From positions 237,374-269,373 of the forward strand of contig JBHLMN010000001.1 in assembly GCA_048938105.1 (NCBI GenBank): a stretch of 32,000 nt of DNA, given 5' to 3'. This DNA comes from Promethearchaeota archaeon (GTDB lineage Archaea > Asgardarchaeota > Heimdallarchaeia > Hodarchaeales > Hodarchaeaceae). Numbering within the stretch: the first letter of the stretch is position 1; the number at the start of each line of letters is the position of its first letter. The position numbers and the translations under genes are program-made. This document shows positions 1,810 through 30,870 of this stretch, one piece after another. Below the pieces are notes generated by a model. That model had not been told where the DNA came from and ran no database searches. It saw nothing but the letters and a program-made list of their open reading frames with translations.

Positions 1810-1858
1810 TAATTCCAGCTCACAGACTTTTTTACCTAAAAGAGAAAGATTTCCGCAA

Positions 1859-2920
1859 TTAATAGACCAATAACTTGTTTAAACGTGGATGATGTGCGAG
1901 TTCTTCTATCACTTGTTTTACATTTCGGGCTTTATGTTTGTGACAAACGAATACACAATCATCGGTATCGATAACTACTAAATTTGAAATTCCTAACGCT
2001 ATTACTGGTTTTTCTCCGAGAATCACACATTTCTTCACATCTATTCCCAGAAAATCTCCTTGAATAATGTTTCCATCGGAATCTGATTCTAAGATGCAGT
2101 CTAAAGAATCCCATGTACCTATATCGTCCCATGGAAAATCTCCTCTCACAACTACTAAATCGGATGTTTTCTCCATAACACCATAATCAATAGAGACTTT
2201 TGGAAGGGATAGAAACACGTTGTACGCTTCCTTTTCATTAAATTCTGACTTCCGTATTTTTTCTAAGGCTTGATAAAGAGTCGGCATATATTCACGAATT
2301 TTTTCATATAGCACAGAAGGTTTAACAATAAACATACCAGAATTCCATAAATACCCCTGTTTAATATATTCTTGGGCTTTAATTTCATCTGGTTTTTCCT
2401 TGAAGCTCTCAACGTTATAAACTGGAATAGGAGTTTGAACAATCTCTTTTCCAGGACTGATGTATCCAAAACGAGTTTCATTACGACTTGGTTTTATTCC
2501 AATCGTTGAAATTTTTCCTTTTTTAGCTAATTGAACCGCGGTTTTTACAACTTCTTTGAAGTGGCTTATATCTGGTAAATGATAATCCGCTCCCATAAAT
2601 AAAATTGCTTCATCTTTATTTTCGTGAAGAAATTGAGCGCAAACATAACCCATACCTGCTGCAGAATCACGACCCATTGGTTCTACTATCATTCTTACTT
2701 GTGGTAGTTGTTCTTGGATAATTGGTAAAAATTCTCTTCGTATAGACACTGATGTGTTCTTCTCTCCGGCAATTTGACAAGCAATCTTGAAAGTTCGTTG
2801 AATCAAAGATTCTTTTCCATCAAGAGAGATGAATTGTTTAGGTTTATTCTTACGTGATTTTGGCCATAACCGCTCTCCTCCTCCCCCAGCTAAAATTACT
2901 ATATAAACCACTGGTTTCAC
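1859..2920 (-). CDS. manC: Mannose-1-phosphate guanylyltransferase (NTP-transferase type, no C-terminal PMI/cupin domain)
   Basis: N-terminal IVILAGGGGERLWPKSRKNKPKQFISL matches the GDP-mannose pyrophosphorylase signature (LAGGxGxRLWPxSRxxxPKQF). GIKPSRNETRFGYI is also present. 353 aa. Confidence 0.78.
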   Translation of the reverse strand: MKPVVYIVILAGGGGERLWPKSRKNKPKQFISLDGKESLIQRTFKIACQIAGEKNTSVSIRREFLPIIQEQLPQVRMIVEPMGRDSAAGMGYVCAQFLHENKDEAILFMGADYHLPDISHFKEVVKTAVQLAKKGKISTIGIKPSRNETRFGYISPGKEIVQTPIPVYNVESFKEKPDEIKAQEYIKQGYLWNSGMFIVKPSVLYEKIREYMPTLYQALEKIRKSEFNEKEAYNVFLSLPKVSIDYGVMEKTSDLVVVRGDFPWDDIGTWDSLDCILESDSDGNIIQGDFLGIDVKKCVILGEKPVIALGISNLVVIDTDDCVFVCHKHKARNVKQVIEELAHHPRLNKLLVY

Positions 2921-3034
2921 CTTATTCTTACAGAAATGTCAGATATTTTCCTTTCTTTTTTTAAAATTGCCATTGAATTCATTGAGAGCTAATCAATATT
3001 TTGATCACTCCAATTTTACTCCTCAAGCTAATTT

Positions 3035-3409
3035 TCAAAGAATATGAAGATTTACTAGTCGGATCAGCTCTTTAGAACTAAAAGGTTTAGTGATATATTC
3101 AACAGCTCCAGCTTGTAGTCCTAATTCTATATCATGACTTAGAACCTTGGCAGAAAAAATGATAATTGGAATATGTTTGTATTTTTCATCCTTCTTCAGA
3201 TGGTGACATACATCAAGTCCAGATAATCCGCCAGGCATTTTAATGTCTAATAATATTAAATTAGGCATCTTCTGAACTTCTTTAAGGGCTTCTTTTCCAT
3301 TTGATGCTTCCCAAATTTCGAATCCTTCATATTCTAAAATTGTACGGAGTAGCCCGAGTGTATCGACTTCATCATCGACGACTAAAATGCTCTTTTTTCC
3401 GCTAGGCAT
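3035..3409 (-). CDS. Stand-alone CheY-like response regulator receiver domain
   Basis: Receiver motifs: SILVVDDEVD (acidic pocket), LILLDIKMPGGLSGLD (phospho-acceptor Asp), IPIIIFSAK, EYITKPFS (conserved Lys). The track ORF extends to 3514, but its first 35 codons are low-complexity hydrophobic. I place the start at ATG 3409 (MPSGKKSILVVDDE). Confidence 0.85.
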   Translation of the reverse strand: MPSGKKSILVVDDEVDTLGLLRTILEYEGFEIWEASNGKEALKEVQKMPNLILLDIKMPGGLSGLDVCHHLKKDEKYKHIPIIIFSAKVLSHDIELGLQAGAVEYITKPFSSKELIRLVNLHIL

Positions 3410-3602
3410 TGTTAAAAACCGAATTGAGTATTTTTTTCGGAAACACGAGTAAATATAATTCACTTTTAAAAAGGGTATATACATAATATCAAAGCTTAGG
3501 AATCTCAAACTCAACTAAGAGGAGGTGTTTGAAGAGATTATTTCACTCTTGCATCGTTATTCTATTAAGCTTTATAGAAAATAGCGAATTAAAACCTTGA
3601 AA

Positions 3603-3617
3603 TTGAACTCAGTTCAA
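3603..3617. promoter_or_regulatory. Perfect 7-bp inverted repeat TTGAACT-C-AGTTCAA in the cofH / receiver intergenic region
   Basis: Read directly from the sequence. It lies about 195 bp upstream of the receiver start and about 215 bp downstream of the cofH stop. The 1-nt spacer makes a DNA-binding site more likely than an RNA hairpin. Function unknown. Confidence 0.25.
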
Positions 3618-3832
3618 CTCCTAGCTGACAGAGCTGAAGAAATAGTACCTATGGATTAAAAAAAACAGGAATGACCTGAATAGTTTTCTTTTAAAAGGTT
3701 GATTTCTTAGATGGTTATAAAAAAGTGTCTGATTTTTTCTTGATCAATAGTTACTCCTCAGGAAAAACCTAGCTATTCTGAAAGTCATCAAAAGGGATAT
3801 TACTTGACTAAAAAAGATGTTGTGTAGATATG

Positions 3833-4993
3833 TTAACAGAGAAGATTATATAATGTCCCACGTTCACATGAAGTTCTTTGAAGTTGATGAATACTCATCT
3901 GAAATTTTTCAGGAGTAGCAAGCTGTCCAAATACTCCACCAGCAGAACGAGTGATATTTTCCTCAAATAATGTTCCGCCAAAATCATTACAACCAGTTGT
4001 TAATGTGATTTGAGCCATTGGAAACCCTAATTTTACCCAAGACGTTTGAATGTTCTTAAATAAATCTCCTAAATACAATCTGGAGACAGCATAGAATTTT
4101 ATATAGTCCAAACTACTTAATTCATGAAAAGAATGAGTCTGCTTTAATTGTGTATTTTCCGCAATGAATGGGAGAGGAATGAATTCTGTAAAACCATTGG
4201 TTTTTTCCTGTATCATTCGTAATATTGAGAGATGACGAACCCAATGATGATAATTTTCAATATGACCAAAAAGAATTGTGGCTGTTGTAGGAATCCCCAG
4301 CTGATGAGATAATTCTATAGTATGAATCCATTCAGAACTACTCAATTTATGAGGACATATGATTTTTCGAATATTATCATCTAGAATCTCGGCTGCTGTT
4401 CCAGGTACGGATCCTAGTCCCTGTTTTTTGAATTCCAGCAAAACATCTTCAACATCTTCTTCTATAGAATTAGCTGCATGAGTAATTTCTTGAGGAGAAA
4501 ACGCATGAATATGAAGAGTAGGATCAATCTCTTTCAGATTCTGAAGGATTTCAATGTATGCATTAAAATTCACTGCAGGATGAATCCCTCCTTGAACACA
4601 GACCTCTGTTATGTGATAAGGATAGGTCTCCTCAATTTTTTTTCTGAGGCCCTCCATTGAAATATCGAAATATCCATCTTTTGAATTAGGAGGTACAGAA
4701 TATGCACAAAACAAACAGTTATTTGAACATACATTAGTAAAGTTAATATTACGGTTAACAACATATGTTACTATAGATCCTACCTGACGTTCCCTTATTA
4801 TGTCAGCTACCTGACCTAAAAGATGAATTTCATGTCCCTGTGCTGAAAGTAAAATGTATAATTGTTCAACTGTAGGAATCTCATCGTTAAGTATTTGTTT
4901 CAATACATTACGGAGTTCTCTTCTAGCTTTTCTTAGATCAAGCTCCTCCTGATCAGCTAGTTTCGCCGTTTTACTTAACCATCCTTGTCTCAA
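3833..4993 (-). CDS. cofH: FO synthase subunit 2 (7,8-didemethyl-8-hydroxy-5-deazariboflavin synthase, radical SAM) CofH
   Basis: VTYVVNRNINFTNVCSNNCLFCAY is the CofH-type radical-SAM CxxxCxxC cluster region. 386 aa. It overlaps the stop of cofG by 23 nt. cofD and cofC in the same window support F420 rather than the futalosine (MqnC/E) pathway. Confidence 0.85.
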   Translation of the reverse strand: MRQGWLSKTAKLADQEELDLRKARRELRNVLKQILNDEIPTVEQLYILLSAQGHEIHLLGQVADIIRERQVGSIVTYVVNRNINFTNVCSNNCLFCAYSVPPNSKDGYFDISMEGLRKKIEETYPYHITEVCVQGGIHPAVNFNAYIEILQNLKEIDPTLHIHAFSPQEITHAANSIEEDVEDVLLEFKKQGLGSVPGTAAEILDDNIRKIICPHKLSSSEWIHTIELSHQLGIPTTATILFGHIENYHHWVRHLSILRMIQEKTNGFTEFIPLPFIAENTQLKQTHSFHELSSLDYIKFYAVSRLYLGDLFKNIQTSWVKLGFPMAQITLTTGCNDFGGTLFEENITRSAGGVFGQLATPEKFQMSIHQLQRTSCERGTLYNLLC

Positions 4994-6119
4994 GTTTCTT
5001 AACAGAAGCTATCTTATATACTTGCGGTGAGAGCCACTCTAAATTAATGTAGCGAGGGTATACTGGAAGTCTCTCCTGCAATTGATACCCACCTTTTCGT
5101 GTAATCCGCTCTAGTTGAAAAAACGAAGGCCAATTATGATCTGGATTTATGAAATCAACAGACATAGAAGAAATTCCTCCCCAATCAGACATTCCTGATC
5201 CTATAAAACGATGTTCATGACTTTTCACAAGATTTGGGGGGATTTGAATCGAAATTTCTGACGGGAGGATATGACGTGCAATGATGAGGATTTTTTCCAT
5301 CAAATCTATTGATGGGGGAGGAAAGTTCGCCATAACACTATCTTTATGAGGTTGAAAATTCTGAATAATCACTTCCTGAAGGTGTCGATACTTCTGATGA
5401 ACCTTTTTCAAAGCAAATAAACTTCTTATTATTTCTTCTTGAGTTTCACCAATTCCAATTAAAATCCCACTTGTAAATGGGATTTTCAGTTTTCCTGCAT
5501 TTTTAATGGTTGACATCCTTTTTTTGGGGTGTTTATCAGGAGAATGTTCATGGGGGAAACCCCTATGTGTCAATCTTGAACTTATTGTTTCAAGCATCAG
5601 CCCTATACTGGCTGATACCTCATGTAAATATCTAAGTTCATCAAAAGCCAATGTTCCACTATTTATATGGGGTAATAACTCGTATTTCAAAGCTTTTTCA
5701 GCGATGAAGTAGGTATATTCTACTGTTGTATCAAATCCATGATTAGACAGCCATTTCCTTGCAGAAAAATATTTTTTCTCAGGTTTATCTCCATTTGTAA
5801 TGAGTACTTCGGACACCTTATGATCTCTAGCAGCGGATAGAATCTTCTCTATCTTTTCTAATGTTAAGAATTCTTGGCCTAGAGGAACCTTAGAGCGACG
5901 AAATCCACAATAATGACATGTATTCCGACAAAGAAACGTCAAAGGAATGAAGACATTATTCGAGAATGTAATTTTGTTTTGATAAACACTTGAAGCAATA
6001 GATCTTGCAGATTGTTTCCAAAGATTTATTTCATCTGGATTATTTTGATGTAAAAATTCTAGTGCATGGTCAATAGTTATTGATTCAGGAGGACTAAGTG
6101 AGGAAGAATTGTGTACCAA
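4971..6119 (-). CDS. cofG: FO synthase subunit 1 (radical SAM) CofG
   Basis: ITFSNNVFIPLTFLCRNTCHYCGFRR is the CofG-type cluster motif (NVFIPLTxxCRNxCxYCGF). 382 aa, immediately upstream of and overlapping cofH. Confidence 0.85.
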   Translation of the reverse strand: MVHNSSSLSPPESITIDHALEFLHQNNPDEINLWKQSARSIASSVYQNKITFSNNVFIPLTFLCRNTCHYCGFRRSKVPLGQEFLTLEKIEKILSAARDHKVSEVLITNGDKPEKKYFSARKWLSNHGFDTTVEYTYFIAEKALKYELLPHINSGTLAFDELRYLHEVSASIGLMLETISSRLTHRGFPHEHSPDKHPKKRMSTIKNAGKLKIPFTSGILIGIGETQEEIIRSLFALKKVHQKYRHLQEVIIQNFQPHKDSVMANFPPPSIDLMEKILIIARHILPSEISIQIPPNLVKSHEHRFIGSGMSDWGGISSMSVDFINPDHNWPSFFQLERITRKGGYQLQERLPVYPRYINLEWLSPQVYKIASVKKLETRMVK

Positions 6120-6271
6120 AACAATGCCTCTACTTGTTAAGATGAAATTGGGCTATTAAAACAGATATACTAATTTTATTTCAATTTTATTGTTTTAATT
6201 TACTACATTCAAATATTGCTTCAATTACATAGACGAATTTACTCTCATTTACATTGTGGGAATCATCATTC

Positions 6272-6874
6272 TCATTTGAGTCTGTCAAAAATGTAGATAC
6301 CAGCAGAAATCAGTCCTTTTCTATGAAAAATAGGAGCTCCAAAAATAGGATAGTTGATTGTGAACACTTTACATGAATATTTCAATCCCTTGAATATACA
6401 TATTTCAGATGGGTAGAATTCATAGTAATGACCTTGAAAAATGAAATTATCAACCCCACGTAACATTCGACGAAGAAAATTAAAAATTGGACGAATAAAA
6501 CGATTTTTCGTTGTTGGTACAATAATGATAACCCGACGGTTTGCTGTTCTTAACATATCCTTAATAACTGCTGAATAATTTTTGATATGTTCAATGACAT
6601 CAAAAGATACAACATATTCAATTGATTGATCTGCAAACGGAATATGCGATGCACTAGCTTTGATTGCATTCTTTCGTCGCCCAGGATGGATATCAATTCC
6701 AATTACTTCTTTATATTTCTGCTTTAAACGATTATGGCAATAAAGGTGACCTGTAACATCAATATCTCCGCAGCCGACATCTAATACACGGCCTGATCCT
6801 TTAGGAATAAGCTGTTCAACAATATCCATTTTATTCATGCAATATCGGAGATAAATATCAGGAATATAACTCAC
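6272..6874 (-). CDS. Class I SAM-dependent methyltransferase
   Basis: Motif I VLDVGCGD, then IGIDIHP, then FADQSIEYVVSFDVIEHI (Methyltransf_11-like layout). Substrate unknown. Confidence 0.7.
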   Translation of the reverse strand: MSYIPDIYLRYCMNKMDIVEQLIPKGSGRVLDVGCGDIDVTGHLYCHNRLKQKYKEVIGIDIHPGRRKNAIKASASHIPFADQSIEYVVSFDVIEHIKNYSAVIKDMLRTANRRVIIIVPTTKNRFIRPIFNFLRRMLRGVDNFIFQGHYYEFYPSEICIFKGLKYSCKVFTINYPIFGAPIFHRKGLISAGIYIFDRLK

Positions 6875-8478: not shown

Positions 8479-9458
8479 ATCGAACTAATCAAAGAACCAC
8501 CCTTCGGGATTATTATTCTACAAATTTCAACATAGATGGGCTTGCATCGATTATTGACTTCTCAACTTTTTCAACCCGTGAATTCGGTTTCGCTACTCTT
8601 GGAGGGAAGTTTTTTCGAAACATTTCATTTGAAAATCCTAAAGCATTGATTGACTTCTTGGTGGATCGAACGCCATATCATGCTTACGTTGGAGCTGTGT
8701 ATAATGATCCACCTTCTCGGGAAACGCCTATTCATACCCTAGAATGGCTAGGGCATGAACTTGTCTTTGATATCGACCTGAATGAATATGATGCTGTACG
8801 TCAATATGTTTGTGAATGTCAAGGTGCTGATCAGGTGTGTTTGCGTTGTTGGCAATTAATAAATCTCGCAGTCTATATTATTGATGAAACATTACGACTG
8901 GATTTCGGGATGAAAGACATTAAATGGATTTTTTCTGGGCGACGGGGAGTACATGGATGGGTTATTGATGATTCAACTTTTTCATTAGATCAAGAACAAC
9001 GAATGTCTATAATAAATTACCTATCAGTTATCCACGGAGAAGCAGAGAAAGCTCGAATTCAGGATCGTACAAAATTACAATATGATTTTCGCTACCGAAT
9101 TGAACACACTGTTTTTAAGTATTTCCTTGAGAATATCAGACGAAAAGACCTCATAGATCTGGGTTTCAGCTCTTCTGTTGCATCCAATATCATAAAGCAA
9201 TTAGAACACCAAAACGGACAGATTGATGAGAATTTATTAAGAAATTTCAATCTTCGGGTTGCAAAAATAAATAAATACGATGAAATCCTACGACGATGGG
9301 TACCACGCATAGATCACAAAGTTTCTATCGATTTACGACGATTACTTCGATTACCCAACTCCATCCACGGGAAAACTGGTAAAGTGGCACGAATTTTAGA
9401 TCCTAGTAAAATATTCTCCTTTAATCCTGATGAGGAACCTTCAATCTTCTCTAGTTAA
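8475..9458 (+). CDS. priS: DNA primase small (catalytic) subunit PriS
   Basis: AEP catalytic motifs ELVFDIDLNEYD (DxD), SGRRGVHGWV and RLLRLPNSIHGKTG, plus the zinc motif CECQGADQVCLRCW. GTG start. Confidence 0.9.
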   Translation: MNRTNQRTTLRDYYSTNFNIDGLASIIDFSTFSTREFGFATLGGKFFRNISFENPKALIDFLVDRTPYHAYVGAVYNDPPSRETPIHTLEWLGHELVFDIDLNEYDAVRQYVCECQGADQVCLRCWQLINLAVYIIDETLRLDFGMKDIKWIFSGRRGVHGWVIDDSTFSLDQEQRMSIINYLSVIHGEAEKARIQDRTKLQYDFRYRIEHTVFKYFLENIRRKDLIDLGFSSSVASNIIKQLEHQNGQIDENLLRNFNLRVAKINKYDEILRRWVPRIDHKVSIDLRRLLRLPNSIHGKTGKVARILDPSKIFSFNPDEEPSIFSS

Positions 9459-10201: not shown

Positions 10202-11515
10202 TTAAAGATTATTAACACTCTTGACACAAAATTGTTTGTACGAAGTTTGGAATAAATCCCTTATTCGGGCAGGCTGAAACCATAAACAGCCCCTATTGAC
10301 TAGGTTTTTAATAAAACCATCGCCAATTACTTTTCTTAAGATATTTAATGCCCCATTCACATCCGCATTAATCAAATAATTCACGCTTTGAAATAACCCA
10401 CGATTACGACGCGTCCCGAGATAATGCTTATGTTTGTTAATGCGTTCTAAATCTAACGCACTACATTTAGAGGTATAAGCTTCATTAACCTCATAGACCT
10501 TAATACCAACTAAATCAGCTTTGTATTTGAGCATTTGTTTGAGTCGATAGAATGGAATAGTAACGAAATTTTGGTTTGTTTTTTTACCTAATTGGATACC
10601 GTCCTTGATATCCTTTAATTCCCCCAGACAAATGTTGCCTATCTTGTAATGCAAACAATAGTCAATGATAAACCGACTAGTTTTATGCAGATAGTCTGTA
10701 ATAGTCATGTTGCGATTCCTGGTAATCTCCTCTAATTTGGCTGTGAATTGCTTGTGTTTTTGTTTGTCTTTAATCGAAGTCAATTGAGCTTTCTGTTTAT
10801 TCCAACCTTGATTGATGGATTTGAGGATACTCCCTGAAATGATGATTGGGGTTTTGTTTTGGTTTTCTACCATTGTAATCAGATTGTTTAATCCAAAATC
10901 AATCCCCAGATAAGCACGAGTGTCTAAAGCGGAATTAACACCAGTAACTTTGTAAATCACTTCAATCTCAAAATATTTTTTCCGAGGCAAAACTCTGATC
11001 TGCTGATAATCAACAAAATTGATTGTTCTTGTGTGATGTTTGGGAATAGGAATTGTGATAGGCTCTTTCAAGTCAGGATATTTGGCTTGGAAGGTTTTCG
11101 ACATAGTTAAGATGATTTTGCTTTTATTGGTGTCGATTTTACTATTTTGATTAGTAAAGATAAGTAAAAAAGGTTCTGCTTTGGGTTTATAACGGGGGGG
11201 ATTCGGTTTCCCCCGATACTTATCAGGATTGTGGTTCCAGTCTCTGATCGCTTTGAAATAGGAACTCCAATTCTTATCAATCACTTTCAAGAGTTGTTGA
11301 GCCGTCTGTGCCTTTAATAACCGGTAATGAATGGAATCAGCCTTCAAAAGCCTGTTCAGCTCTAAATACCTCAACCATTTCTTTGTTAGTTGGAGCTCTT
11401 GGTTGATTAAATAATTGGCTTGATTATAAAGATTCTTGGAAGTATAGCATAGCTGTCTTAACTGGTCTAAGTGGGGATATCGGGGATAATAGCGAAATTT
11501 ATAGGTTAATCTCAT
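10202..11515 (-). CDS. tnpB: TnpB-like RNA-guided endonuclease (IS200/IS605-IS607 OrfB)
   Basis: N-terminal MRLTYKFRYYP...LRQLCYTSKNLYNQA is OrfB-like. RuvC-I is YLGIDFGLNNLIT, RuvC-II is EVNEAYTSKCS, RuvC-III is INADVNGALNILRK. The usual CxxC...CxxC zinc ribbon between RuvC-II and III is reduced to a single Cys. Confidence 0.85.
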   Translation of the reverse strand: MRLTYKFRYYPRYPHLDQLRQLCYTSKNLYNQANYLINQELQLTKKWLRYLELNRLLKADSIHYRLLKAQTAQQLLKVIDKNWSSYFKAIRDWNHNPDKYRGKPNPPRYKPKAEPFLLIFTNQNSKIDTNKSKIILTMSKTFQAKYPDLKEPITIPIPKHHTRTINFVDYQQIRVLPRKKYFEIEVIYKVTGVNSALDTRAYLGIDFGLNNLITMVENQNKTPIIISGSILKSINQGWNKQKAQLTSIKDKQKHKQFTAKLEEITRNRNMTITDYLHKTSRFIIDYCLHYKIGNICLGELKDIKDGIQLGKKTNQNFVTIPFYRLKQMLKYKADLVGIKVYEVNEAYTSKCSALDLERINKHKHYLGTRRNRGLFQSVNYLINADVNGALNILRKVIGDGFIKNLVNRGCLWFQPARIRDLFQTSYKQFCVKSVNNL

Positions 11516-12101
11516 TTTGAAATTCCTTGATCCTTTTTTTGGTAAAGTTTTTTCTTCTTGTTGAATACATTGACATCGTATAGCAGTGTAATAACGAAAT
11601 TATTTCCTGAAAGATTTCCTGCTCTGTGGAAACTGATTCTAACTCATTCAACACAATTAATTCTGCACCAAATTCATGAAAAAAGGCATTAAACAATTCG
11701 AACCCAATTCTACTTAGTCTATCTTTATGGGAGATGATGATTTTCTCAATTTTATAGTTGATCAGTTCTCTTAATAAGCTCATTAACTTCTCCCGTTTGA
11801 ATCGCATGCCTGAGGCAATATCCTCATAGATAGCATTTAAGACTATCCCATTTTGAAAGCAATAGTTTTTAATGAATTGAACTTGATTTTCTAAATCAGG
11901 TTTTTGTTTTTTGGTAGACACTCTGGCATATGCAACCGTTTTTCGAGGTAAATCTTTGTTTAGAAACTTATAGACTGATTTTTCATTATAATCATACCTT
12001 CCATTTGGTAGAGTAGTTACTTCAATTGTGCCTTCTTTCACATACTTTGAGAGAGTCACCCTTGAGATTCTGAGTAAGTTTAACACTTCTTTTGCTTTCA
12101 T
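11499..12101 (-). CDS. tnpA: IS607-type serine recombinase TnpA (MerR-like HTH + resolvase catalytic domain)
   Basis: MKAKEVLNLLRISRVTLSKYVKEG (HTH), then VAYARVSTKKQKPDLENQ (catalytic Ser motif). I place the start at ATG 12101; the track ORF begins 9 codons earlier at 12128. Confidence 0.85.
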   Translation of the reverse strand: MKAKEVLNLLRISRVTLSKYVKEGTIEVTTLPNGRYDYNEKSVYKFLNKDLPRKTVAYARVSTKKQKPDLENQVQFIKNYCFQNGIVLNAIYEDIASGMRFKREKLMSLLRELINYKIEKIIISHKDRLSRIGFELFNAFFHEFGAELIVLNELESVSTEQEIFQEIISLLHCYTMSMYSTRRKNFTKKRIKEFQNEINL

Positions 12102-12238
12102 GATTATTACTATTCTGAAGTAATACATAAATTTTGTTAAATTAATTTAATATTCTTAATTATTTTCTACATTATAAATACTATATTTCTTTCATTGATA
12201 AATAATTAAAATCATATTTATGAGTAACGGGATAAGAT

Positions 12239-24188: not shown

Positions 24189-25022
24189 GTGATAAAAATG
24201 GCTGAAAAAGAAGAACCTCAAGAAGAAGCGACACCCATTACTGAGATAGAACGGAAAATTACCGTAGACCTTTGGAAAACAAAACTACACGGGGAAATTG
24301 TAGGAATAAAACAAAAAGAAGAATATATGGCTAAATCCCGTCAATTTACTAGAGATCTTGAACTGATTGGTGAAGTTAAGGAAAAAAAGAAAGGGGAAGA
24401 AGAGACCATTGGATATGTAGGTTATCGAAAAGGGCTATGGGATGATGAAGAAGATAAATTAGAAAGACGCTTAGTAATTAAACTATTTTCGAAATCAATG
24501 TATTATCAAGGCACCCTAGAAGAAATGGTCGGTCGGGAGTTCACCCGTTCATTATCCGCACGACATGATTTTCCTAGTTTTAACTTAATGATTGATGATT
24601 ATGAATACTTAATTCCGCTAAATAAGATTCGTGGCGGAAAGTTCGTTCCAGAATGGTTTGTTTTCCGTATTGATGATGAAGAAGGATTTATTCCGATTAT
24701 TTTAAAGCATAAGATGGGACTTGGAATCGATTATCGGGTAGTTCACGGAATAGGTGACACACAATTTGGTAAAATTGATGGGAAAAAGTTCGATGTAGGG
24801 GGACGATATGACATCAGCCTTAAATCCACGGATGAACGTTTGGTTGATAATGTTCTTGTACGAGTATTAATCCTCTTTGCAGCTTCTTTGAAGTTTCATG
24901 AAGAAATTTTTAAGAAAATTAAGAAGGGGACGAAAAAAATGAGAAAGAATGAATGGCAACCAACACTTTCGAATGAAGAAAAACTTCTTCGACGTAATCC
25001 ACGAGCGATTCTACGGAAATAA
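24189..25022 (+). CDS. Tubby-C/YxjI/LURP-one-like beta-barrel protein with acidic N-terminal extension (tentative)
   Basis: The C-terminal part GKIDGKKFDVGGRYDISLKSTDERLVDNVLVRVLILFAASLKF resembles the end of YxjI/LOR-family proteins (KKWxSWGDxYELxI followed by a hydrophobic central helix). The start may be ATG 24198 rather than GTG 24189. Confidence 0.4.
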   Translation: MIKMAEKEEPQEEATPITEIERKITVDLWKTKLHGEIVGIKQKEEYMAKSRQFTRDLELIGEVKEKKKGEEETIGYVGYRKGLWDDEEDKLERRLVIKLFSKSMYYQGTLEEMVGREFTRSLSARHDFPSFNLMIDDYEYLIPLNKIRGGKFVPEWFVFRIDDEEGFIPIILKHKMGLGIDYRVVHGIGDTQFGKIDGKKFDVGGRYDISLKSTDERLVDNVLVRVLILFAASLKFHEEIFKKIKKGTKKMRKNEWQPTLSNEEKLLRRNPRAILRK

Positions 25023-25040: not shown

Positions 25041-25721
25041 TTGATCCCTGAAGATGAGAGCTTAGAATTCGTAATCGAACATCTCAAGGATATGATTCAA
25101 GAACAAGCAGATAAAAAAATAGAAAAAGTATCAGATCTGACAGATATTCTTTCTAATTTTATGGCCACATTTTTAATAGTGGTTGATGCGTTAATTTCAA
25201 GCAGTCAGTCAAGATTTGGGGCAATTGATGAAAAATTAGCTGAATTTGAGGATCTTCTACAGGGTACTTCTATTAAAGGGTTATCAGAGCCATCAGAAAT
25301 ATCGGAGAAAAGGCCTATTGAAGAAAAAAAACAACCAATAGAAGAGTCCGTAGTTAAATCATCCAAAACCCCGCCGATTCCATCGAGTGATGTTGTAATC
25401 TCTCCACCACCTCCACCGCCCCCTTCCCCTTTCCCTTCCATAACCGTTGCGGAAGAACAGAAACCTGTAGTTGAAACCACAGAAATCATGGAAGATGAAA
25501 TCACTGAAGACGAAGCCATCGAAACATCAGAAGATATGGAAGAAATGGAGGTGGAAGATCTTGCAGCATTTGCATTTCAACGGCGCGAAAAAAAAGAAAA
25601 AGTCCCTCCCTCTCGTCAAGTCGATTCAGGACTTAGTGCAGGATCACTCAAATTGGAATTAATGAAAGAACTAAAAAAGAAATTCAGTAGTGAAAAAGAC
25701 ACTCAAAATGAATCTAATTGA
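25041..25721 (+). CDS. Acidic, proline-rich protein of unknown function
   Basis: 226 aa. TTG start preceded by AGGAG at 8-nt spacing, 18 nt after the upstream stop, so probably co-transcribed. The N-terminus is helical, followed by TPPIPSSDVVISPPPPPPPSPFPS, a strongly acidic block (EIMEDEITEDEAIETSEDMEEMEVEDL), and a basic C-terminal helix LKLELMKELKKKF. Confidence 0.5.
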   Translation: MIPEDESLEFVIEHLKDMIQEQADKKIEKVSDLTDILSNFMATFLIVVDALISSSQSRFGAIDEKLAEFEDLLQGTSIKGLSEPSEISEKRPIEEKKQPIEESVVKSSKTPPIPSSDVVISPPPPPPPSPFPSITVAEEQKPVVETTEIMEDEITEDEAIETSEDMEEMEVEDLAAFAFQRREKKEKVPPSRQVDSGLSAGSLKLELMKELKKKFSSEKDTQNESN

Positions 25722-26471
25722 AATCTATCAAGATGGGGGGATTCATATCTCCAAGGAGATTTTTAGCAAGCAAAGAGCAACCTTCAGTCCCTCCTGAAGC
25801 AATATGTCATTAGGTATGTGAAAACAACCACAATTGATCCAGTATTTGTCATACTTCTATTCAGACACCATAAAAAGACACAATAAAATCGAATCCCAAT
25901 TAATATGAGAGGAACAGTACCTCATTTACACTTTCTTTCTTTATTATAGAACCCCCACTTGATTTAAAAAAAGCAGGTTAGTATTGAAACTGATTATCCT
26001 CAAGAAATGGATCTAAAGACCACTCCTTAAGGATGTCAGAGAGAGTGCGATATATATATCGTTTTCCGTAATTCAAAGCCGTCTTTAATAATCCTTCAAT
26101 GGATAGGGCATCATCAGACAAAAGAGATCCTTCGTACCTAGCGAGGTGGAAGGGGTTCTTAAAGGTAACGAAATAGGCCAGAATTACAGAAGAGTATTAC
26201 TGTCTACATAGGAAGGTATCTCAACAGATTTGTGAAATTAATACCAGAAAAAAAGTAACGACTAAAATGACGCTTTAATGATGAAGAACTTGCCTGAGAA
26301 TAATGGAGTCTCTGAAAAATCTAAAATTATGGAAGGGAAAACCAATTAAAATCTAGGTCTAGTTCTCCTCTTACTGTTCCCCTCTGTAAGTCTTAATTGT
26401 ATTCAGAAAATGGAAGCTGATCAAAGTAGTGACGCCATAAGGCTATATAATGAATTTTCTGGCCGAATCAG

Positions 26472-26882
26472 CTAGTATAGTATCACATTCTGGCCATCTG
26501 AATCATCTTCGGTTGGTGTCGCGGTTTTAATGCCAGACGAAAGAATTCGGATTAAGTCATTTCGAGTTAATAGAAAGATTCGAATTCTTTCCGCGAGAGA
26601 TCGTGCTGGGTCGGAAAAGAGATTTGTGACAATGAGCATTTTTGAAAGAAGGCGATTGTTTTTCATGATCTTTTCGGCACGAATAATGATATCTACGCCA
26701 ACAGCACGTTTCCAGTCTTTGATCATAACTCCAATACCCTCATTTTCATCACCATTTTGGATGATGAGGTCAACATTTTCATTCCGATAATTTTGTACGC
26801 CGTGGCTAACAATTAAACCACGTTGGCGACAGTACTCGAGCGTTAGCTCTTCTAATCCAAGTGAATCATAATTAATCTTCAT
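26472..26882 (-). CDS. Minimal Mrr-type restriction-endonuclease-fold (PD-(D/E)xK) protein
   Basis: NVDLIIQNGDENEGIGVMIKDWK gives a possible D...(D)xK motif with 17-residue spacing. It is followed by VGVDIIIRAEKIM...MLIVTNLFSDPARSLAERIRIFLLTRNDLIRIL, which mirrors the Mrr_cat C-terminal pattern (hhVTxxxFSxxAxxxAxxxxIxLIDgxxLxxL). I place the start at ATG 26882 because GAGGGG lies 7 nt upstream; the track ORF starts at 26933. Confidence 0.6.
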   Translation of the reverse strand: MKINYDSLGLEELTLEYCRQRGLIVSHGVQNYRNENVDLIIQNGDENEGIGVMIKDWKRAVGVDIIIRAEKIMKNNRLLSKMLIVTNLFSDPARSLAERIRIFLLTRNDLIRILSSGIKTATPTEDDSDGQNVILY

Positions 26883-27963
26883 GGTAAATCCCCTCTGGGG
26901 TGATTCGAGCATCCTTAGTAATGGATGATTCAAACGCCAGATGCTCTAAAATGCCAAAGATCGCTCTATTAGGGCGATAGGCTTTCTCACGTTTATCTCG
27001 ATCTGTTGATTGCTCATAGATCAAATTAGAATTTAATAAATCAGCTAAATGATGACTAATTGTACTTTTAGTCTTATTCATCATGTAAGTAAGCTCTTTA
27101 TGAATGATATATTCACGTCTATCAAGTTCGTTCTGAACCTGAACCTCTCGAACAAGTATTTCGCGGAGAATAGAAATCTTACTTCGTGGAAAACTGCTTA
27201 AAACTTTGGGGTTAATTCCAAAGGTAAAACGCAAACCGTCTGATCCCAGATAGAAATGCTCTTTCAGAATTTGAATAGCAACACCAGGATTACCTAAAGC
27301 AAGGGAAGCAATATTCGAAATGGTTGTATCAGTAATATGGGAAGAATCTTGCTTTGTGGCACAGACATTTAAACGTCGTTGAAGAAGATGCTCAATTTCA
27401 GTCCTGGTAAGGGAAGGCATAACCAAAAAGTGACGATATGAGATGTCACCAGTCGGAATACACAGGCGACGATAGATTTCAAATTCAGTGCTATCCATGA
27501 TTGCAATGATTTTAGGGGAGGGAGAGGAAGAAGACGAATTCAAACTTAATAGGGTCTTATGTAAACGAAAAGCATTATCAAGAAAGAGGATATCGTCAGA
27601 TTGCACATTAGTGTTGAAAAGGTGTGAAGCATCCTGATAAATAGTGTTTAATTTATGATAATGTCGAAATTCTTCAAAAATGCGGGCAAAGATTGTTTTA
27701 CCAGACCCTCGAGGGCCTTTGAGGAAGAGAATGTCAGAAGGAGAGTCTTGAATAAATTCGATAATCTTGATAATGAGGGATTTGAATTGCGGATTTGTCT
27801 CGCCATAAAACGCCATAGGTTGGTGGAGAGGGAGGAGAGGATCACAGGGATCACACTGATAACCTAATTGCACTAGCTGCTTCCGTTGTTTTCGTTGGAT
27901 TAAGTCAGACATGGCTGATTCAAATAGGGTGCCCGGGGGAAGATCATCACGGTCATGACTCAT
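26872..27963 (-). CDS. P-loop NTPase (Orc1/Cdc6- or Arch_ATPase-like) with C-terminal ArsR-type winged helix, paralogue 2
   Basis: Walker A FLKGPRGSGKTIFA; Walker-B-like DDILFLDNA with no catalytic Glu; C-terminal HTH ELTYMMNKTKSTISHHLADLLNSNLIYE. AGGAGGG (27971-27977) lies 7 nt upstream of the ATG. ATGA overlap with the upstream gene. Confidence 0.7.
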   Translation of the reverse strand: MSHDRDDLPPGTLFESAMSDLIQRKQRKQLVQLGYQCDPCDPLLPLHQPMAFYGETNPQFKSLIIKIIEFIQDSPSDILFLKGPRGSGKTIFARIFEEFRHYHKLNTIYQDASHLFNTNVQSDDILFLDNAFRLHKTLLSLNSSSSSPSPKIIAIMDSTEFEIYRRLCIPTGDISYRHFLVMPSLTRTEIEHLLQRRLNVCATKQDSSHITDTTISNIASLALGNPGVAIQILKEHFYLGSDGLRFTFGINPKVLSSFPRSKISILREILVREVQVQNELDRREYIIHKELTYMMNKTKSTISHHLADLLNSNLIYEQSTDRDKREKAYRPNRAIFGILEHLAFESSITKDARITPEGIYHED

Positions 27964-29396
27964 GGGGACTCCCTCCTAGCAACAAGAATGGTGGATAGCT
28001 TGATATCATATTTCTTGGGTTTGAGGCGATGGAAGACAGTGATAATTTCCAAGGCGCTAGCGATGTGGGAATCCCAATCAATACAAATTATCTTTGAACG
28101 AGCGTCAACCACATCGTCGATCGCTGATAAGATAGGAACGGGTAAAGAGGATGTTAGAGGTTTGAGATGGTAATTCATGGTAGACAGATTAACACCCAAT
28201 GCATTTGCAAGAGAAGTGCTACGTAAACCATCCACACCCGTGTTTGGGAAGAAGTAGCGTTCCCGAAGTTGATGATTAAGGAGTAAAAAAATAATCTCTC
28301 GCCGTTTCGCTGTAAGAAGACTTGCTATTTCCTCGTCAGCATTATTGTCTATAGATTCAACTAAACGAACAACTAAATCATAACCTAACCGCTGTATTAA
28401 GGGTTTGATTGTATCTATTGTTGCTTTATCAAGGTCTTGTAAGATTAATTCGTGCAAACAAAACGAAGCAAATTGTAATGCGAGTAATGGGATCCCTAAA
28501 CTGTGATCTGCAATTAATTCGATGATTTCTTGTGAAAAAAAGTTGGTAGGGAGGCGAGCAACTTTGATACGCTGAGATAATAGTTTCATTATTTCGTATT
28601 TGGAAAATACTGGGAAAAAGAAGTGGCGAGGATGAAAAAAGGTAAGAAAAGATCGAGAGAGTTCAAGATATTCATCCTCCAAAAGAACAGTCAAGGTCAA
28701 ACTATTTACAAAACCAATAACAATGACACCATGCTGCGCTTGAGTTTCAATTTCAGTAATAAACTCCCTAATACGGGGAATCGCAGCTGTACCAGTGATA
28801 GTATAATCTAAGTTGTTAATGAAAATGATGAGAGGCTTCTCAACAAGTTGAATTCGATTGAGAAAATCTTCATATGTTTCTAAGACTTTAGTAGAGGAAC
28901 TGAAAGGCTCTAATATCTCACGAGGTTCACGCCAATCAGATAAATCGGTATATAAAGTGTCATAATCTTGAAAACCAATGTGATCCCATTCACGGTCGAA
29001 ATGACGGGCTAAAGAAGATTTACCACAGCCTCGCAAACCATGAGCCAGAAGATGTCGAAACGGGGACTGAGAATCTTCAAATAAACGAATCGCATTCCCA
29101 ATACGAATGGCAAAGTCGTATAGAACATCCTCGCGCTCAATTAGAAAGTCAGGATTATGGGGATCAATATCAGGGCTGAAAGGGTCTTGGGTGAGACCAA
29201 AACGTTCAAACGCGGATTCTTTAACAAGCTTGCCAGAACGGCCAGCTTTTAAGGCCTCACGAAGCCGGTCAGCCAACTTAGTCACGAGATACAGACACCT
29301 ACGCAAGCGATGATTCGCGAGAATCGAGCTTATAAAGTCGAGAAGATTGGAATGAAATGAGGAAATAATGGTGAACGAGGAGGAAAGGGCAGTCAC
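27960..29396 (-). CDS. P-loop NTPase (Orc1/Cdc6- or Arch_ATPase-like) with C-terminal ArsR-type winged helix, paralogue 1
   Basis: The lead-in FGLTQDPFSPDIDPHNPDFLIEREDVL is Cdc6/Arch_ATPase-like. Walker A is LAHGLRGCGKSSLA; the Walker-B-like strand is KPLIIFINNLD; the C-terminal HTH is LRSTSLANALGVNLSTMNYHLKPL. The track start 29396 is a GTG with no SD. GTG 29285 (MTKLADRLREAL...) has AGGTG 10 nt upstream and a TATA-like box at 29329-29337, so it may be the true start. Confidence 0.7.
   Translation of the reverse strand: MTALSSSFTIISSFHSNLLDFISSILANHRLRRCLYLVTKLADRLREALKAGRSGKLVKESAFERFGLTQDPFSPDIDPHNPDFLIEREDVLYDFAIRIGNAIRLFEDSQSPFRHLLAHGLRGCGKSSLARHFDREWDHIGFQDYDTLYTDLSDWREPREILEPFSSSTKVLETYEDFLNRIQLVEKPLIIFINNLDYTITGTAAIPRIREFITEIETQAQHGVIVIGFVNSLTLTVLLEDEYLELSRSFLTFFHPRHFFFPVFSKYEIMKLLSQRIKVARLPTNFFSQEIIELIADHSLGIPLLALQFASFCLHELILQDLDKATIDTIKPLIQRLGYDLVVRLVESIDNNADEEIASLLTAKRREIIFLLLNHQLRERYFFPNTGVDGLRSTSLANALGVNLSTMNYHLKPLTSSLPVPILSAIDDVVDARSKIICIDWDSHIASALEIITVFHRLKPKKYDIKLSTILVARRESP
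29329..29337 (-). promoter_or_regulatory. Candidate TATA box (CTTTATAAG on the minus strand) for the NTPase/nuclease operon
   Basis: It lies about 45 nt upstream of the alternative GTG 29285 and about 30 nt upstream of the AGGTG SD-like motif (29296-29300). It is only meaningful if 29285 is the real start. Confidence 0.3.
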
Positions 29397-29610
29397 TCAC
29401 ACAGGAGAGGGCAGGAGGAGTGAAGAGGGGCACGAGATAAGCTCGCCCGCATCTTTTCGAACTAATCGAACCATTCCTTATAAACCTAACTCTAGGCGCT
29501 TCTTTATAAATAAAATTCATTCCCTTAGATACAAAGTAACTATTAGGTCTCGTTTTATAACTTAATATTAATTACGATATCATTACAAAGTCATCATTAT
29601 CGAACTAACT

Positions 29611-30870
29611 TCATCGATACTTATATCGTTCTTTGGTAAAGTCTACGGGTAGCTCCCCTGTCTCCAGATACCTTCTGAGTGCCTCGCGTTTCCAGTTAAA
29701 CTCTGTGATGGTCTTCTGGCGAACCGTCTCGCTCGCCAAGTATGCCTGTATTTCCGCCCGTAACTCCTGATAAAGATTCTCTGCCAGTGCCTGTGCTTTT
29801 TCGAAGAATGCTTCGTCCGCTGTCGTCCCTAGCGTTTCTTCAGTGTCATCAATCCTATGATCCTTAAATGCTTCATGAATGTGGAACACTCCTGCTTCTG
29901 TCTTCCCCCATTCTTTTATTTCATGCTCTATCTCCATTTTCAACCCCAAACTCCTTATTGTATCCTTGAGGATCACTTCCAGCATCTCCACTTCCTCGGT
30001 GATATCCGCGAGTTCTTCTACCTCAGGGAAGTTCTCTTCCACCTTGAACAGTCGCGCCATCTTCTTGAACAGGAGCTTTTGCATCTCGAACTGAATGCGT
30101 GGGATCATCTCCAGCACCCTCGCGTGGAACTTGTTGCTGTACTCTTCTGGTCTTAAGTCCCCGAACTCTTCCTCCAGTTCTACCCTGTATTTGTCATAGT
30201 TGAACACTGTTTCAAATCCCTCACGGTTCTTTAAGTCCGAATAAACATCTTTTTTCAGCATAGGCCACATCATCTTCTCGGGGTAACCTTTTATCATCTT
30301 CTCAGTATAAATAAATGCGTTATACTGACCCATCAGGTACCCAATCTGATCTGCCAAGTCAGTTGCGTCTAACTCTGCCTCTGTTTTCGGATAGTATGGG
30401 TAATTCTTATCGATACCCTTCCAGTGATACAGAAATTGGTTATCTGGCATCCCCCCTTCCGTTTTTTCGTGATTTTCAAGTGTTTCTGAATGTGGTGGGA
30501 ACACCAACTTGATTCCTTTTAGCCGTGCACTTACTTCTTCTTCCTTTAATATGTAGATCTTGTTGCAATGTCGTTCACAGTGAAAGATCATATAACCTTC
30601 ATCTGTGGTTTTTAGTTTCCCTGTTACGGCAAAAGCGTCCGTTTTTTCGTTACACCCTGGACAAGTAACGTTAGTGATCTCAGCTACATAAGTGGTTGAC
30701 ACTGTCAGCCCATCTATCGTAATAAAAGCGGGTCGTGATCTATACTGATGCATTCCCTTAAGCAGCCCCTCTGATATTTTTTTAAAAGACGGTTTTGCCA
30801 CCAGATCTCTAAGTGACACCTCAGGTACAATTGTTCTCACATTATTCTCTCCTTTATTTGACCACACCAT
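29611..30870 (-). CDS. Hypothetical protein with N-terminal zinc-ribbon-like CxxC-x24-CxxxC and an acidic helical C-terminal half
   Basis: 419-aa ORF covering almost the entire ~50% G+C block. The cysteine motif is CPGCNEKTD...MIFHCERHC. I recognise no family. Three plus-strand ORFs on the opposite strand (29857-30156, 29879-30094, 30315-30512) are shadows. Confidence 0.6.
   Translation of the reverse strand: MVWSNKGENNVRTIVPEVSLRDLVAKPSFKKISEGLLKGMHQYRSRPAFITIDGLTVSTTYVAEITNVTCPGCNEKTDAFAVTGKLKTTDEGYMIFHCERHCNKIYILKEEEVSARLKGIKLVFPPHSETLENHEKTEGGMPDNQFLYHWKGIDKNYPYYPKTEAELDATDLADQIGYLMGQYNAFIYTEKMIKGYPEKMMWPMLKKDVYSDLKNREGFETVFNYDKYRVELEEEFGDLRPEEYSNKFHARVLEMIPRIQFEMQKLLFKKMARLFKVEENFPEVEELADITEEVEMLEVILKDTIRSLGLKMEIEHEIKEWGKTEAGVFHIHEAFKDHRIDDTEETLGTTADEAFFEKAQALAENLYQELRAEIQAYLASETVRQKTITEFNWKREALRRYLETGELPVDFTKERYKYR

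Follow-up and report, generated by a model that had tools for sequence, protein, structure and literature searches.

The window analyzed here is a 32,000-nt stretch of contig JBHLMN010000001.1 (GenBank assembly GCA_048938105.1, positions 237,374 to 269,373) from a Promethearchaeota archaeon, and our subject is a trio of overlapping minus-strand genes in it, ATP1, ATP2 and Mrr136. Judged by distribution and synteny, the trio is a lineage-specific, vertically inherited operon common to Hodarchaeales-type Asgard archaea. We favor the reading, to which we give an even chance, that ATP1 and ATP2 are ATP-switched subunits of a hetero-oligomer that would sit on arrays of a short sequence box, repress its own genes and, with a partner of Mrr-type fold, serve a chromosomal DNA transaction or its regulation. 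This reading starts from what was observed: the gene structure, the paralogy, the motif states and fold class, the conservation and synteny of the locus, the purifying selection on it, and the boxes. A preliminary description of this DNA had offered the trio as a candidate defense or mobile genetic element (MGE) maintenance module; its observation is essentially correct, and so is its domain-level reading. The trio appears to be undescribed, and a literature search found no description of this three-gene module. The genes and their overlaps, as read from the window sequence, are the following.

27960..29285, minus strand: ATP1, 441 aa, GTG start at 29285 (MTKLAD...); Orc1/Cdc6-like AAA+ protein with a C-terminal ArsR-like winged helix-turn-helix (wHTH)
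27960..27963, minus strand: ATGA stop/start overlap of ATP1 and ATP2
26872..27963, minus strand: ATP2, 363 aa; ATP1 paralogue with AAA+ base, lid and ArsR-type wHTH
26872..26882, minus strand: 11 nt shared by the ATP2 3' end and the Mrr136 start
26472..26882, minus strand: Mrr136, 136 aa from ATG 26882; bare Mrr_cat (PD-(D/E)xK) domain

The two overlaps had been described, together with two Shine-Dalgarno (SD)-like motifs, as marks of one coupled unit. All were confirmed from the sequence, with AGGAGGG located 7 nt 5' of the ATP2 ATG and GAGGGG 7 nt 5' of the Mrr136 ATG, and the ATP2/Mrr136 overlap is kept at 8-11 nt in orthologous loci. Since the overlaps are conserved among loci, a single translationally coupled ATP1-ATP2-Mrr136 expression unit is supported. 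The first gene had been given as 478 aa from 29396 and was corrected to 441 aa. GTG 29396 is the longest-ORF start, and its 37 extra codons are a non-conserved 5' leader; the equivalent of GTG 29285 is the start in the NCBI model of the identical protein and in all 48 homologues. By this comparison GTG 29396 is a spurious ATP1 start.

The Walker A, Walker B-like and wHTH strings quoted in the preliminary description were all found in the window proteins, at these positions of the window sequence.

29016-29039, minus strand: GLRGCGKS of the ATP1 Walker A motif HGLRGCGKSS
28806-28832, minus strand: ATP1 Walker B-like strand LIIFINNLD
~28154-28186, minus strand: ATP1 wHTH recognition region LSTMNYHLKPL
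27694-27717, minus strand: GPRGSGKT of the ATP2 Walker A motif KGPRGSGKTI
27568-27591, minus strand: ATP2 Walker B strand ILFLDNAF
~26971-27117, minus strand: ATP2 wHTH, with the string KSTISHHLADLLNSNLI

That the two NTPases are divergent paralogues of one shared architecture was borne out by BLASTP and hhalign, which agree. BLASTP gave collinear matches between ATP1 and ATP2 (E 7e-5 and 0.006), and hhalign aligned their profiles with 98.2% probability (E 3e-14) over 341 columns, which span the N-terminal 'FG..(N/D)P(F/C)' motif, Walker A, Walker B, the lid, and the wHTH with its wing. By these alignments ATP1 and ATP2 are true, ancient and divergent paralogues with the same architecture. Pfam matches were weak for both, namely AAA_16, AAA and HTH_20 for ATP1 (HTH_20 at 16 bits, under the cut-off) and AAA_14, ATPase_2 and RuvB_N for ATP2. 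The wHTH of ATP2 scored 25.3 bits on HTH_5 (ArsR) against a cut-off of 22, and 19/22 ATP2 orthologues match this model; in all, 44 ATP2 orthologues were found. The wHTH of ATP1 aligns to that of ATP2 (hhalign) and to PDB entry 5duk.

The relationship to archaeal initiators is distant in sequence and clearer in structure. ATP1 matched TIGR02928 (orc1/cdc6) weakly (E 1e-5, 24 bits vs a cut-off of 181.3), and this weak match recurs in 13 of 18 ATP1 family members. ATP2 had no TIGR02928 match, and neither protein matched the Pfam models Cdc6_lid or WHD_Cdc6; by every curated threshold, ATP1 and ATP2 are not Orc1/Cdc6 family members. A PDB sequence search returned only generic wHTH or AAA+ matches for the ATP1 and ATP2 profiles and none for the Mrr profile. 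The AlphaFold2 (AF2) model of ATP2 (pLDDT 78, pTM 0.80) shows the fold of an AAA+ base, a lid and a C-terminal winged helix, and its best Foldseek matches in the PDB were archaeal and eukaryotic Cdc6/Orc1 chains, among them 1fnn, 2qby A/B, 7jgr_G and 1w5t (E 2e-8 to 1e-7, ~370 columns), with RuvB, clamp-loader subunits and DnaA scoring close behind. ATP1 had the same top matches, Cdc6/Orc1, which lend weak support only, coming from a poor model. Because Cdc6/Orc1 chains lead the ATP2 search at full length and ATP1 matches TIGR02928 weakly, we place both proteins in the initiator (ORC/Cdc6-STAND) branch of AAA+.

Motif states of the nucleotide site were counted over 42 ATP1 and 43 ATP2 aligned sequences. 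The Gly-Lys of the Walker A Gly-Lys-Ser/Thr is invariant (42/42 and 43/43). The Walker B Asp is present in 39/42 ATP1 and 43/43 ATP2 sequences; the three ATP1 proteins with Asn instead (FINNLD or FINSLD) are those of the window and its closest relatives. The residue that follows this Asp is D, S or N in ATP1, with Glu in 1/42, and N, K or R in ATP2, with Glu in 0/43. At the sensor-2 position in the lid, ATP1 reads G-I-P and ATP2 G-N-P-G (Gly), and Arg occurs there in neither family alignment. Thus neither protein carries the competent ATPase site of Orc1/Cdc6 (Walker B D-E and sensor-2 Arg). What follows draws on established knowledge of AAA+ catalytic residues. Since Walker A is intact in both families, ATP1 and ATP2 probably bind ATP, and since the catalytic Glu and the sensor-2 Arg are missing, they are likely slow nucleotide switches and not motors. 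The preliminary description had suggested a switch from the lack of the Walker B Glu, and the motif states across both families support it.

A RuvB-like branch-migration motor with a resolvase had also been weighed, given that RuvB was near-equal in Foldseek and that the Hef gene adjoins. This candidate was rejected on account of the degenerate ATPase sites and because Mrr136 does not resemble Hjc.

The third protein had been read as a bare Mrr-type domain, and this holds. Mrr136 matched Pfam Mrr_cat (PF04471) with E 9.1e-13 and 48.8 bits against a cut-off of 21, over positions 7-115 of the 115 in the hidden Markov model (HMM), and matched NA-iREase1 weakly. It consists of the catalytic domain alone, without the N-terminal DNA-recognition (winged-helix) domain of full-length Mrr enzymes. 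Residues were mapped to motifs by eye from the Pfam match, and the window copy keeps all three canonical residues, D38, D56 and K58 (D38-x17-D56-W-K58).

26769-26771, minus strand: codon of Mrr136 D38, the first catalytic Asp by this mapping
26709-26717, minus strand: Mrr136 D56-W57-K58, 17 residues after D38

Its 108 orthologues all come from the same lineage, and residue states were counted over 104. No variation occurs at K55, D56, W57, R59, G62, D64, R68 or E70, and hardly any at K74, N87 and the F89-S-D-P-A motif. Position 38 is Asp in 80/104 and is replaced in 24/104 (23%; N in 12, A in 4, S in 2, E in 2, and 4 others), and position 58 is Lys in 84/104, with R in 18 and N in 2. Loss of the metal-binding Asp is tolerated in this family while many other residues are invariant, a pattern that is easier to reconcile with Mrr136 being a DNA-binding or adaptor subunit, or a nuclease that uses a non-canonical site.

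The setting of the trio is a core chromosome of a Hodarchaeales-type Asgard archaeon, as shown by genes for PriL/PriS, Hef (658 bits on its NCBIfam equivalog) and F420 biosynthesis in the window; Rfam and tRNA scans of the window found nothing. Homologues of all three proteins were found only in metagenome-assembled genomes (MAGs) labeled Hodarchaeales, Heimdallarchaeota or 'Promethearchaeota'. Related loci were gathered as 18 loci from a one-genome-per-species scan plus one divergent orthologue, L024, and the co-occurrence of the three families in other genomes, which the preliminary description had set as a test, was found in them. ATP1 and Mrr136 are adjacent in 19/19 loci, 13 of which have ATP2 in between. 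The loci without it are L013, L014, L015, L018, L019 and L024; there, the Mrr gene follows ATP1 after ~80-130 nt. Where the flank suffices, one finds upstream g19527, g21164, Hef and p277, and in most loci also p226 and a 46-aa open reading frame (ORF); downstream come clusters c4 and c0, response regulators, and clusters c1, c2, c3 and c5. This orthologous position holds in MAGs whose ATP1 is only 38-72% identical to that of the window.

The dN/dS values for close genome pairs were 0.04-0.12 for ATP1, 0.10-0.17 for ATP2 and 0.02-0.12 for Mrr136, compared with 0.05-0.14 for Hef, and the dS of the trio equals that of the flanking Hef and p277 genes in the same pairs. The patchily elevated G+C content reported in the preliminary description is real but small (0.40 for the trio vs 0.35 for the rest of the window), and as a sign of transfer it fails: the trio lies 2-5 points above its surroundings in every orthologous locus. 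Because the offset is the same everywhere, the raised G+C content is, on this comparison, intrinsic to the trio genes and gives no sign of recent transfer. The 'clearly foreign cassette' noted next door, p419, is not part of the conserved unit, and the trio itself is not foreign. Collectively, the trio looks like a selected chromosomal function that was inherited vertically, unlike defense islands or integrated elements.

One rearrangement distinguishes the window. In the window and L002 only, the trio and its box region are flipped with respect to Hef, p277, p226 and the 46-aa ORF, and the ~680 nt of the ancestral intergenic region now form two pieces, of ~350 nt (26122-26471) and ~325 nt (29286-29610). 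A search for inverted repeats at the breakpoints of the inversion found none. Apart from the inversion, nothing sets the window copy apart. The Asn at the ATP1 Walker B position occurs in the same lineage as the inversion.

The intergenic region upstream of ATP1 is long and of constant size across loci (~600-740 nt), and its alignment revealed a 9-bp box, TAGTTCGA(W), in 17/18 loci; the remaining one, L012, has a degenerate array, TGTTTGAATAGTTCGG, as does L016, which is closely related to it. Loci carry 3-5 repeated boxes upstream of ATP1. Two tandem boxes, or sometimes three, with a 9-bp period occupy -170 to -233 relative to ATP1, and a distal single box is found at -310 to -390 in most loci and, in the divergent L024, at -495; some loci have an extra inverted box at -153 to -185 and a proximal box at -53 or -58. 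Box density was 3.75 per kb in the 800 nt 5' of ATP1 vs 0.30 per kb in the rest of the ~238 kb of loci. The 32-kb window holds three exact TAGTTCGA matches, two of them within the 325-nt ATP1 upstream region. The third (8480-8487, minus strand) lies at the PriL/PriS gene junction and is compatible with chance (0.9 expected per window). The elements of the putative promoter in the window are as follows.

29599..29607, minus strand: distal single box TTAGTTCGAT, at -321, abutting the p419 stop codon
29478..29484, minus strand: TATA-like box TTTATAA of the distal promoter; predicted transcription start site near 29455, leader of ~170 nt
29456..29472 (29465-29472 and 29456-29464), minus strand: tandem 9-bp boxes GGTTCGAT TAGTTCGAA, putative operator, 5 nt 3' of the TATA-like box
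29286..29455, minus strand: leader of ~170 nt from operator to ATP1 start, with a second TATA-like box at ~29331-29337 and GTG 29396 inside

A TATA-like box lies ~1-5 nt upstream of the tandem pair in most of the 17 box-bearing loci. In archaeal promoters, the space between TATA box and transcription start is the classic position of a repressor operator. Because the boxes directly follow the TATA box under this usual geometry, they look like a promoter operator rather than origin elements such as origin recognition boxes (ORBs) or a DNA unwinding element (DUE). A search for repeats around the trio, covering ORB-like inverted repeats and MGE borders, gave short chance-level matches only. The leader is not conserved in sequence between distant loci, and a structured-RNA 5' leader was rejected on this ground and on its folding z-scores (-0.83 in the window, -1.96 in L004). 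Scanning a viral collection with the tandem box TAGTTCGAWTAGTTCGAW gave 7 unrelated matches, and the matches listed from a metagenome scan included 2 trio loci (L141, L117). The boxes moved with the trio through the inversion in the window/L002 lineage. Because they travelled together, and because p419, a non-conserved gene, has its stop codon right against the distal box, we take the functional unit to be 26472-29607, with the distal box as its upstream edge.

The trio NTPases belong to a wider family. An exhaustive profile search gave 107 representatives at E < 1e-3; the full-length representatives examined have no dedicated Pfam family, and those with a named source were labeled as Asgard MAGs. 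Among the source annotations of the relatives are 'ArsR family regulator', 'restriction endonuclease', 'ExeA' and 'DNA polymerase III delta prime'. Of all members, ATP2 diverges most. A BLAST matrix showed that relatives tend to occur as tandem paralogues: L021-23 carry a pair of 477 and 450 aa and no nuclease, and L025/26 (Odinarchaeota) carry adjacent paralogues of 474, 410 and 408 aa with a ribbon-helix-helix (RHH) protein. In L020 (Hermodarchaeota-labeled, 1032-6848), an 83-aa gene is followed by ATP1-like paralogues of 442 and 436 aa and then by a NurA-like gene and HerA (DUF87). The start and stop codons of this pair share 1 nt, and several repeats AAATTGTTCAAAA… lie upstream. The L020 pair and two of the three Odinarchaeota genes are far closer to each other than to other modules, and the L023 pair is not; duplication thus seems to be recurrent, not present in every module. 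A bolder extension, on which we would place little weight, is that Asgard archaea have repeatedly made heteromeric sets from Orc1/Cdc6-like AAA+-wHTH proteins by tandem duplication, and that the Hodarchaeales trio is an origin recognition complex (ORC)-like hetero-oligomer that reads 9-bp arrays and recruits a nuclease-fold subunit to chromosomal DNA.

In the mechanism that we favor, ATP1 and ATP2 would assemble in an ATP-dependent manner into a hetero-oligomer, with ATP1 forming a homo-oligomer where ATP2 is missing. Their ArsR-type winged helices would read arrays of TAGTTCGA(W), and the complex would at minimum repress its own transcription, from the best-conserved array between the TATA box and the predicted start, with a second site ~120-200 bp upstream. 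The coupled Mrr136 would be a stoichiometric partner, either a DNA-binding or DNA-sensing subunit or a weak, regulated nuclease. In the cell, the complex would act in a chromosomal DNA transaction or in its regulation, be it replication, repair or the damage response, and not in a strain-variable immunity. From the locus as observed we infer complex formation, the identity of the box-binding protein, repression and the cellular role. An Orc1/Cdc6 paralogue with a regulatory function is known: Orc1-2 of Saccharolobus islandicus is a global transcription regulator of the DNA damage response (PMC12490963).

Several points weigh against this proposal. The ATP1 model is poor (pLDDT 54), and we infer the binding of ATP1 and ATP2 to the boxes from co-location only. 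The second TATA-like box is nearer the ATP1 start codon than the one that precedes the tandem boxes. All loci were retrieved via ATP1, so universality across the order is not formally established. Immune sensors, too, typically have nuclease-fold partners and NTPases poor in hydrolysis, NurA-HerA lies beside distant paralogous pairs (L020), and some relatives match nSTAND models weakly or at the borderline. The window proteins themselves gave no nSTAND3 or nSTAND_NTPase5 match at E up to 0.1; 13/22 ATP2 orthologues match nSTAND_NTPase5 weakly (best E 6e-6; three with a precomputed PF25199 label), and the distant relative P0099 passes nSTAND3 with 32.7 bits against 27.2. The NurA-HerA association and the weak nSTAND matches keep an immunity-type logic alive for the whole superfamily.

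These last points lead to the alternative that the trio is a chromosomally fixed anti-virus or anti-plasmid system, in which foreign DNA or infection would be detected by the wHTH NTPase pair, which would then activate an Mrr-type nuclease as the effector. We consider it unlikely overall, though with a real share of the probability. Switch-type NTPases with DNA-binding domains and a PD-(D/E)xK protein fit such an architecture, the window copy has the complete D38...D56-x-K58 site, the NA-iREase1 match and the nSTAND and NurA-HerA observations point the same way, and the segment 5' of ATP1 is variable (insertions of 4-7 kb in L005, L008 and L010; p419 in the window). However, a defense module would hardly be expected at one orthologous, syntenic position across a deep clade, with a distribution that is not patchy, flank-like dS, and purifying selection as strong as that on Hef. 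The first catalytic Asp is replaced in 23% of the orthologues and K58 by R or N in 20/104, no methyltransferase or other self-protection gene is present, and the module owns a conserved cis-operator. No ATPase or nuclease component had a PADLOC or PHROG match: PADLOC-DB v2 gave matches of the wHTHs to Csa3/CARF-HTH models only, with nothing for the ATPase domains or Mrr136, and PHROGs gave nothing meaningful for the trio. The preliminary description had recognized no named system, and PADLOC-DB v2 gives none; the framing of the trio as a foreign defense or MGE-maintenance module is not supported, given the conserved flanks, the selection, the dS values, the lack of phage and defense family matches and the replaced Asp. 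The remnant or maintenance module of an integrated mobile element, recently acquired with the neighboring high-G+C cassette, is very improbable. The slightly raised G+C content, the adjoining high-G+C p419, an IS607-like element elsewhere in the window and the local inversion can be cited for it, but the same trio with the same flanks in all related genomes largely refutes it by synteny. Moreover, the dS equals that of the flanks, the G+C offset is universal, no integrase, tRNA, flanking repeats or viral family matches were found, and the box motif was not found in Asgard-virus-like contigs.

A replication-origin module, with ATP1 and ATP2 as divergent initiators and the TAGTTCGA boxes as recognition elements of a secondary or lineage-specific origin, would account for the best structural matches to Cdc6/Orc1, which include the Orc1-1/Orc1-3 heterodimer on origin DNA (2qby), and for the weak TIGR02928 matches of the ATP1 family. 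It also suits the long intergenic region of constant size with its 3-5 boxes, the replication and repair genes around (PriL/PriS, Hef), and the canonical Cdc6 found 1.4 kb downstream of Mrr in L024. The preliminary description had named Orc1/Cdc6 initiators beside origin repeats as the finding that would overturn its own reading; the Orc1/Cdc6-like fold and the adjoining repeats are indeed there, but the repeats look like an operator rather than ORB/DUE elements. The boxes are short and for the most part in direct orientation, they come immediately after a TATA box, no pair of inverted ORBs was seen to flank an evident AT-rich unwinding element, and the inversion split the ancestral intergenic region in the window lineage without loss of the module. 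Scores far under the Orc1/Cdc6 cut-offs (24 vs 181 bits), the lack of Cdc6 WHD or lid Pfam matches, an ArsR-type wHTH, and the missing Walker B Glu and sensor-2 Arg argue further against initiators. In the available flanks, no canonical Cdc6, NurA or HerA was found near the trio except the L024 Cdc6, with no Cdc6 within 8 kb in the other loci, and an origin leaves the Mrr partner unexplained. We therefore regard the origin reading as improbable.

Other features of the neighborhood were recorded alongside. The p419 gene (29611-30870, minus strand; G+C 0.44) encodes CxxC pairs near its N-terminus and has no family matches; a homologue of 36% identity occupies the same place in L009 (6907-7647) and is absent from the other loci, and in both the window and L009 the p419 stop codon abuts the distal TAGTTCGA box. 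On the other side, p277 (24189-25022, plus strand) is 70-94% identical across the order, more conserved than Hef, and had no Pfam, NCBIfam or PHROG match. Directly after it comes p226 (25041-25721, plus strand), a low-complexity, Pro/Glu-rich protein. These two genes are co-directional with the trio in most genomes and were parted from it by the inversion in the window. The ORF of ~46 aa (25984-26121, minus strand; …LLKTALNYGKQYLYRTLSNILKEWSLD…) is 91% identical to L004 7181-7318, has no family match, and sits between p226 and the trio in nearly all related loci. In L003, L006 and L008, p226 is followed by a gene of 114-134 aa, of which the window has a 34-aa remnant (25743-25844, plus strand; 50% identity), probably a decayed pseudogene within the 'empty' 750 nt at 25722-26471. 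The IS607-type element (10202-12128, minus strand) consists of a serine-recombinase/resolvase gene (11499-12128) that overlaps a TnpB/Cas12f-like OrfB (10202-11515). Among the other genomes, MAG H2S.126 holds two trio copies (L009 and L017) with 76% DNA identity, L017 being nearer to L005 (83%), so that this bin probably mixes two populations instead of bearing a true duplication. In L024 (8001-12465), the divergent ATP1 and Mrr136, without ATP2, lie between Hef and the canonical Orc1/Cdc6 (AAA_22, Cdc6_lid, WHD_Cdc6).

Hodarchaeales are among the closest known archaeal relatives of eukaryotes. A conserved, ATPase-degenerate Orc/Cdc6-like pair with a cis-element and a nuclease-fold partner would offer a testable heteromeric DNA-binding system of the initiator-type AAA+ class, and it bears on the path from a single archaeal Orc1/Cdc6 to the eukaryotic ORC, which is heteromeric and partly ATPase-dead. 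In the accessible portion of a 2025 survey of the Asgard replisome, ORC2-5 is placed as a gain in LECA, the last ancestor that all eukaryotes share, and the ATP1/ATP2 proteins are not mentioned (PMC12680538). The trio also points to an unnamed Asgard protein superfamily that existing defense and replication annotation pipelines miss or mislabel. Should the immunity alternative be true, the trio would be a rare defense system fixed at one locus across an order.

Among known systems, archaeal Orc1/Cdc6 proteins (S. solfataricus Orc1-1/Orc1-3 on origin DNA, 2qby; P. aerophilum Cdc6, 1fnn) come closest in structure. They have in common with ATP1 and ATP2 the AAA+ base, lid and winged helix, a '...P..l..RE..l' segment before Walker A, a 'hF.P.s..Ei..Ll..Rl' motif after sensor 1, two paralogues encoded together, and the best Foldseek matches. 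In contrast, identity amounts to 11-17%, the family model gives 24 bits where 181 are required, ATP1 and ATP2 have an ArsR-type wHTH with an extra helical linker and not the Cdc6 WHD, they lack the Walker B Glu and the sensor-2 Arg, their genes are coupled to one for an Mrr-fold protein, and the repeats look like operator 9-mers rather than ORBs. Mrr136 shares with Mrr type IV restriction endonucleases the fold of the catalytic domain and, in the window copy, D...DxK, but it is a bare domain whose first catalytic Asp varies among orthologues, and it is always coupled to one or more AAA+-wHTH genes and vertically inherited. STAND/NACHT conflict NTPases with an (inactive) restriction endonuclease (REase) resemble the trio in the combination of an ORC/Cdc6-branch switch NTPase, a winged helix and an REase-fold module, and in weak HMM matches. 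They differ in that most matches of the trio family lie under curated cut-offs, no repeat-sensor domains are present, and the trio proteins are separate instead of fused, core-genomic and syntenic instead of variable. By analogy only, DnaA with its 9-mer DnaA boxes is a further AAA+ initiator-clade protein whose C-terminal HTH binds 9-bp arrays, including those of its own promoter (autoregulation), although it comes from another domain of life and has another HTH type, and we claim homology only at the level of the AAA+ clade. Saccharolobus islandicus Orc1-2 is a bona fide Orc1/Cdc6 member that acts as a single protein without a nuclease partner, so that the likeness is one of logic only; even so, its initiator-type AAA+-WH architecture, repurposed to sequence-specific promoter binding, is the analogy on which we would model the function of the trio.

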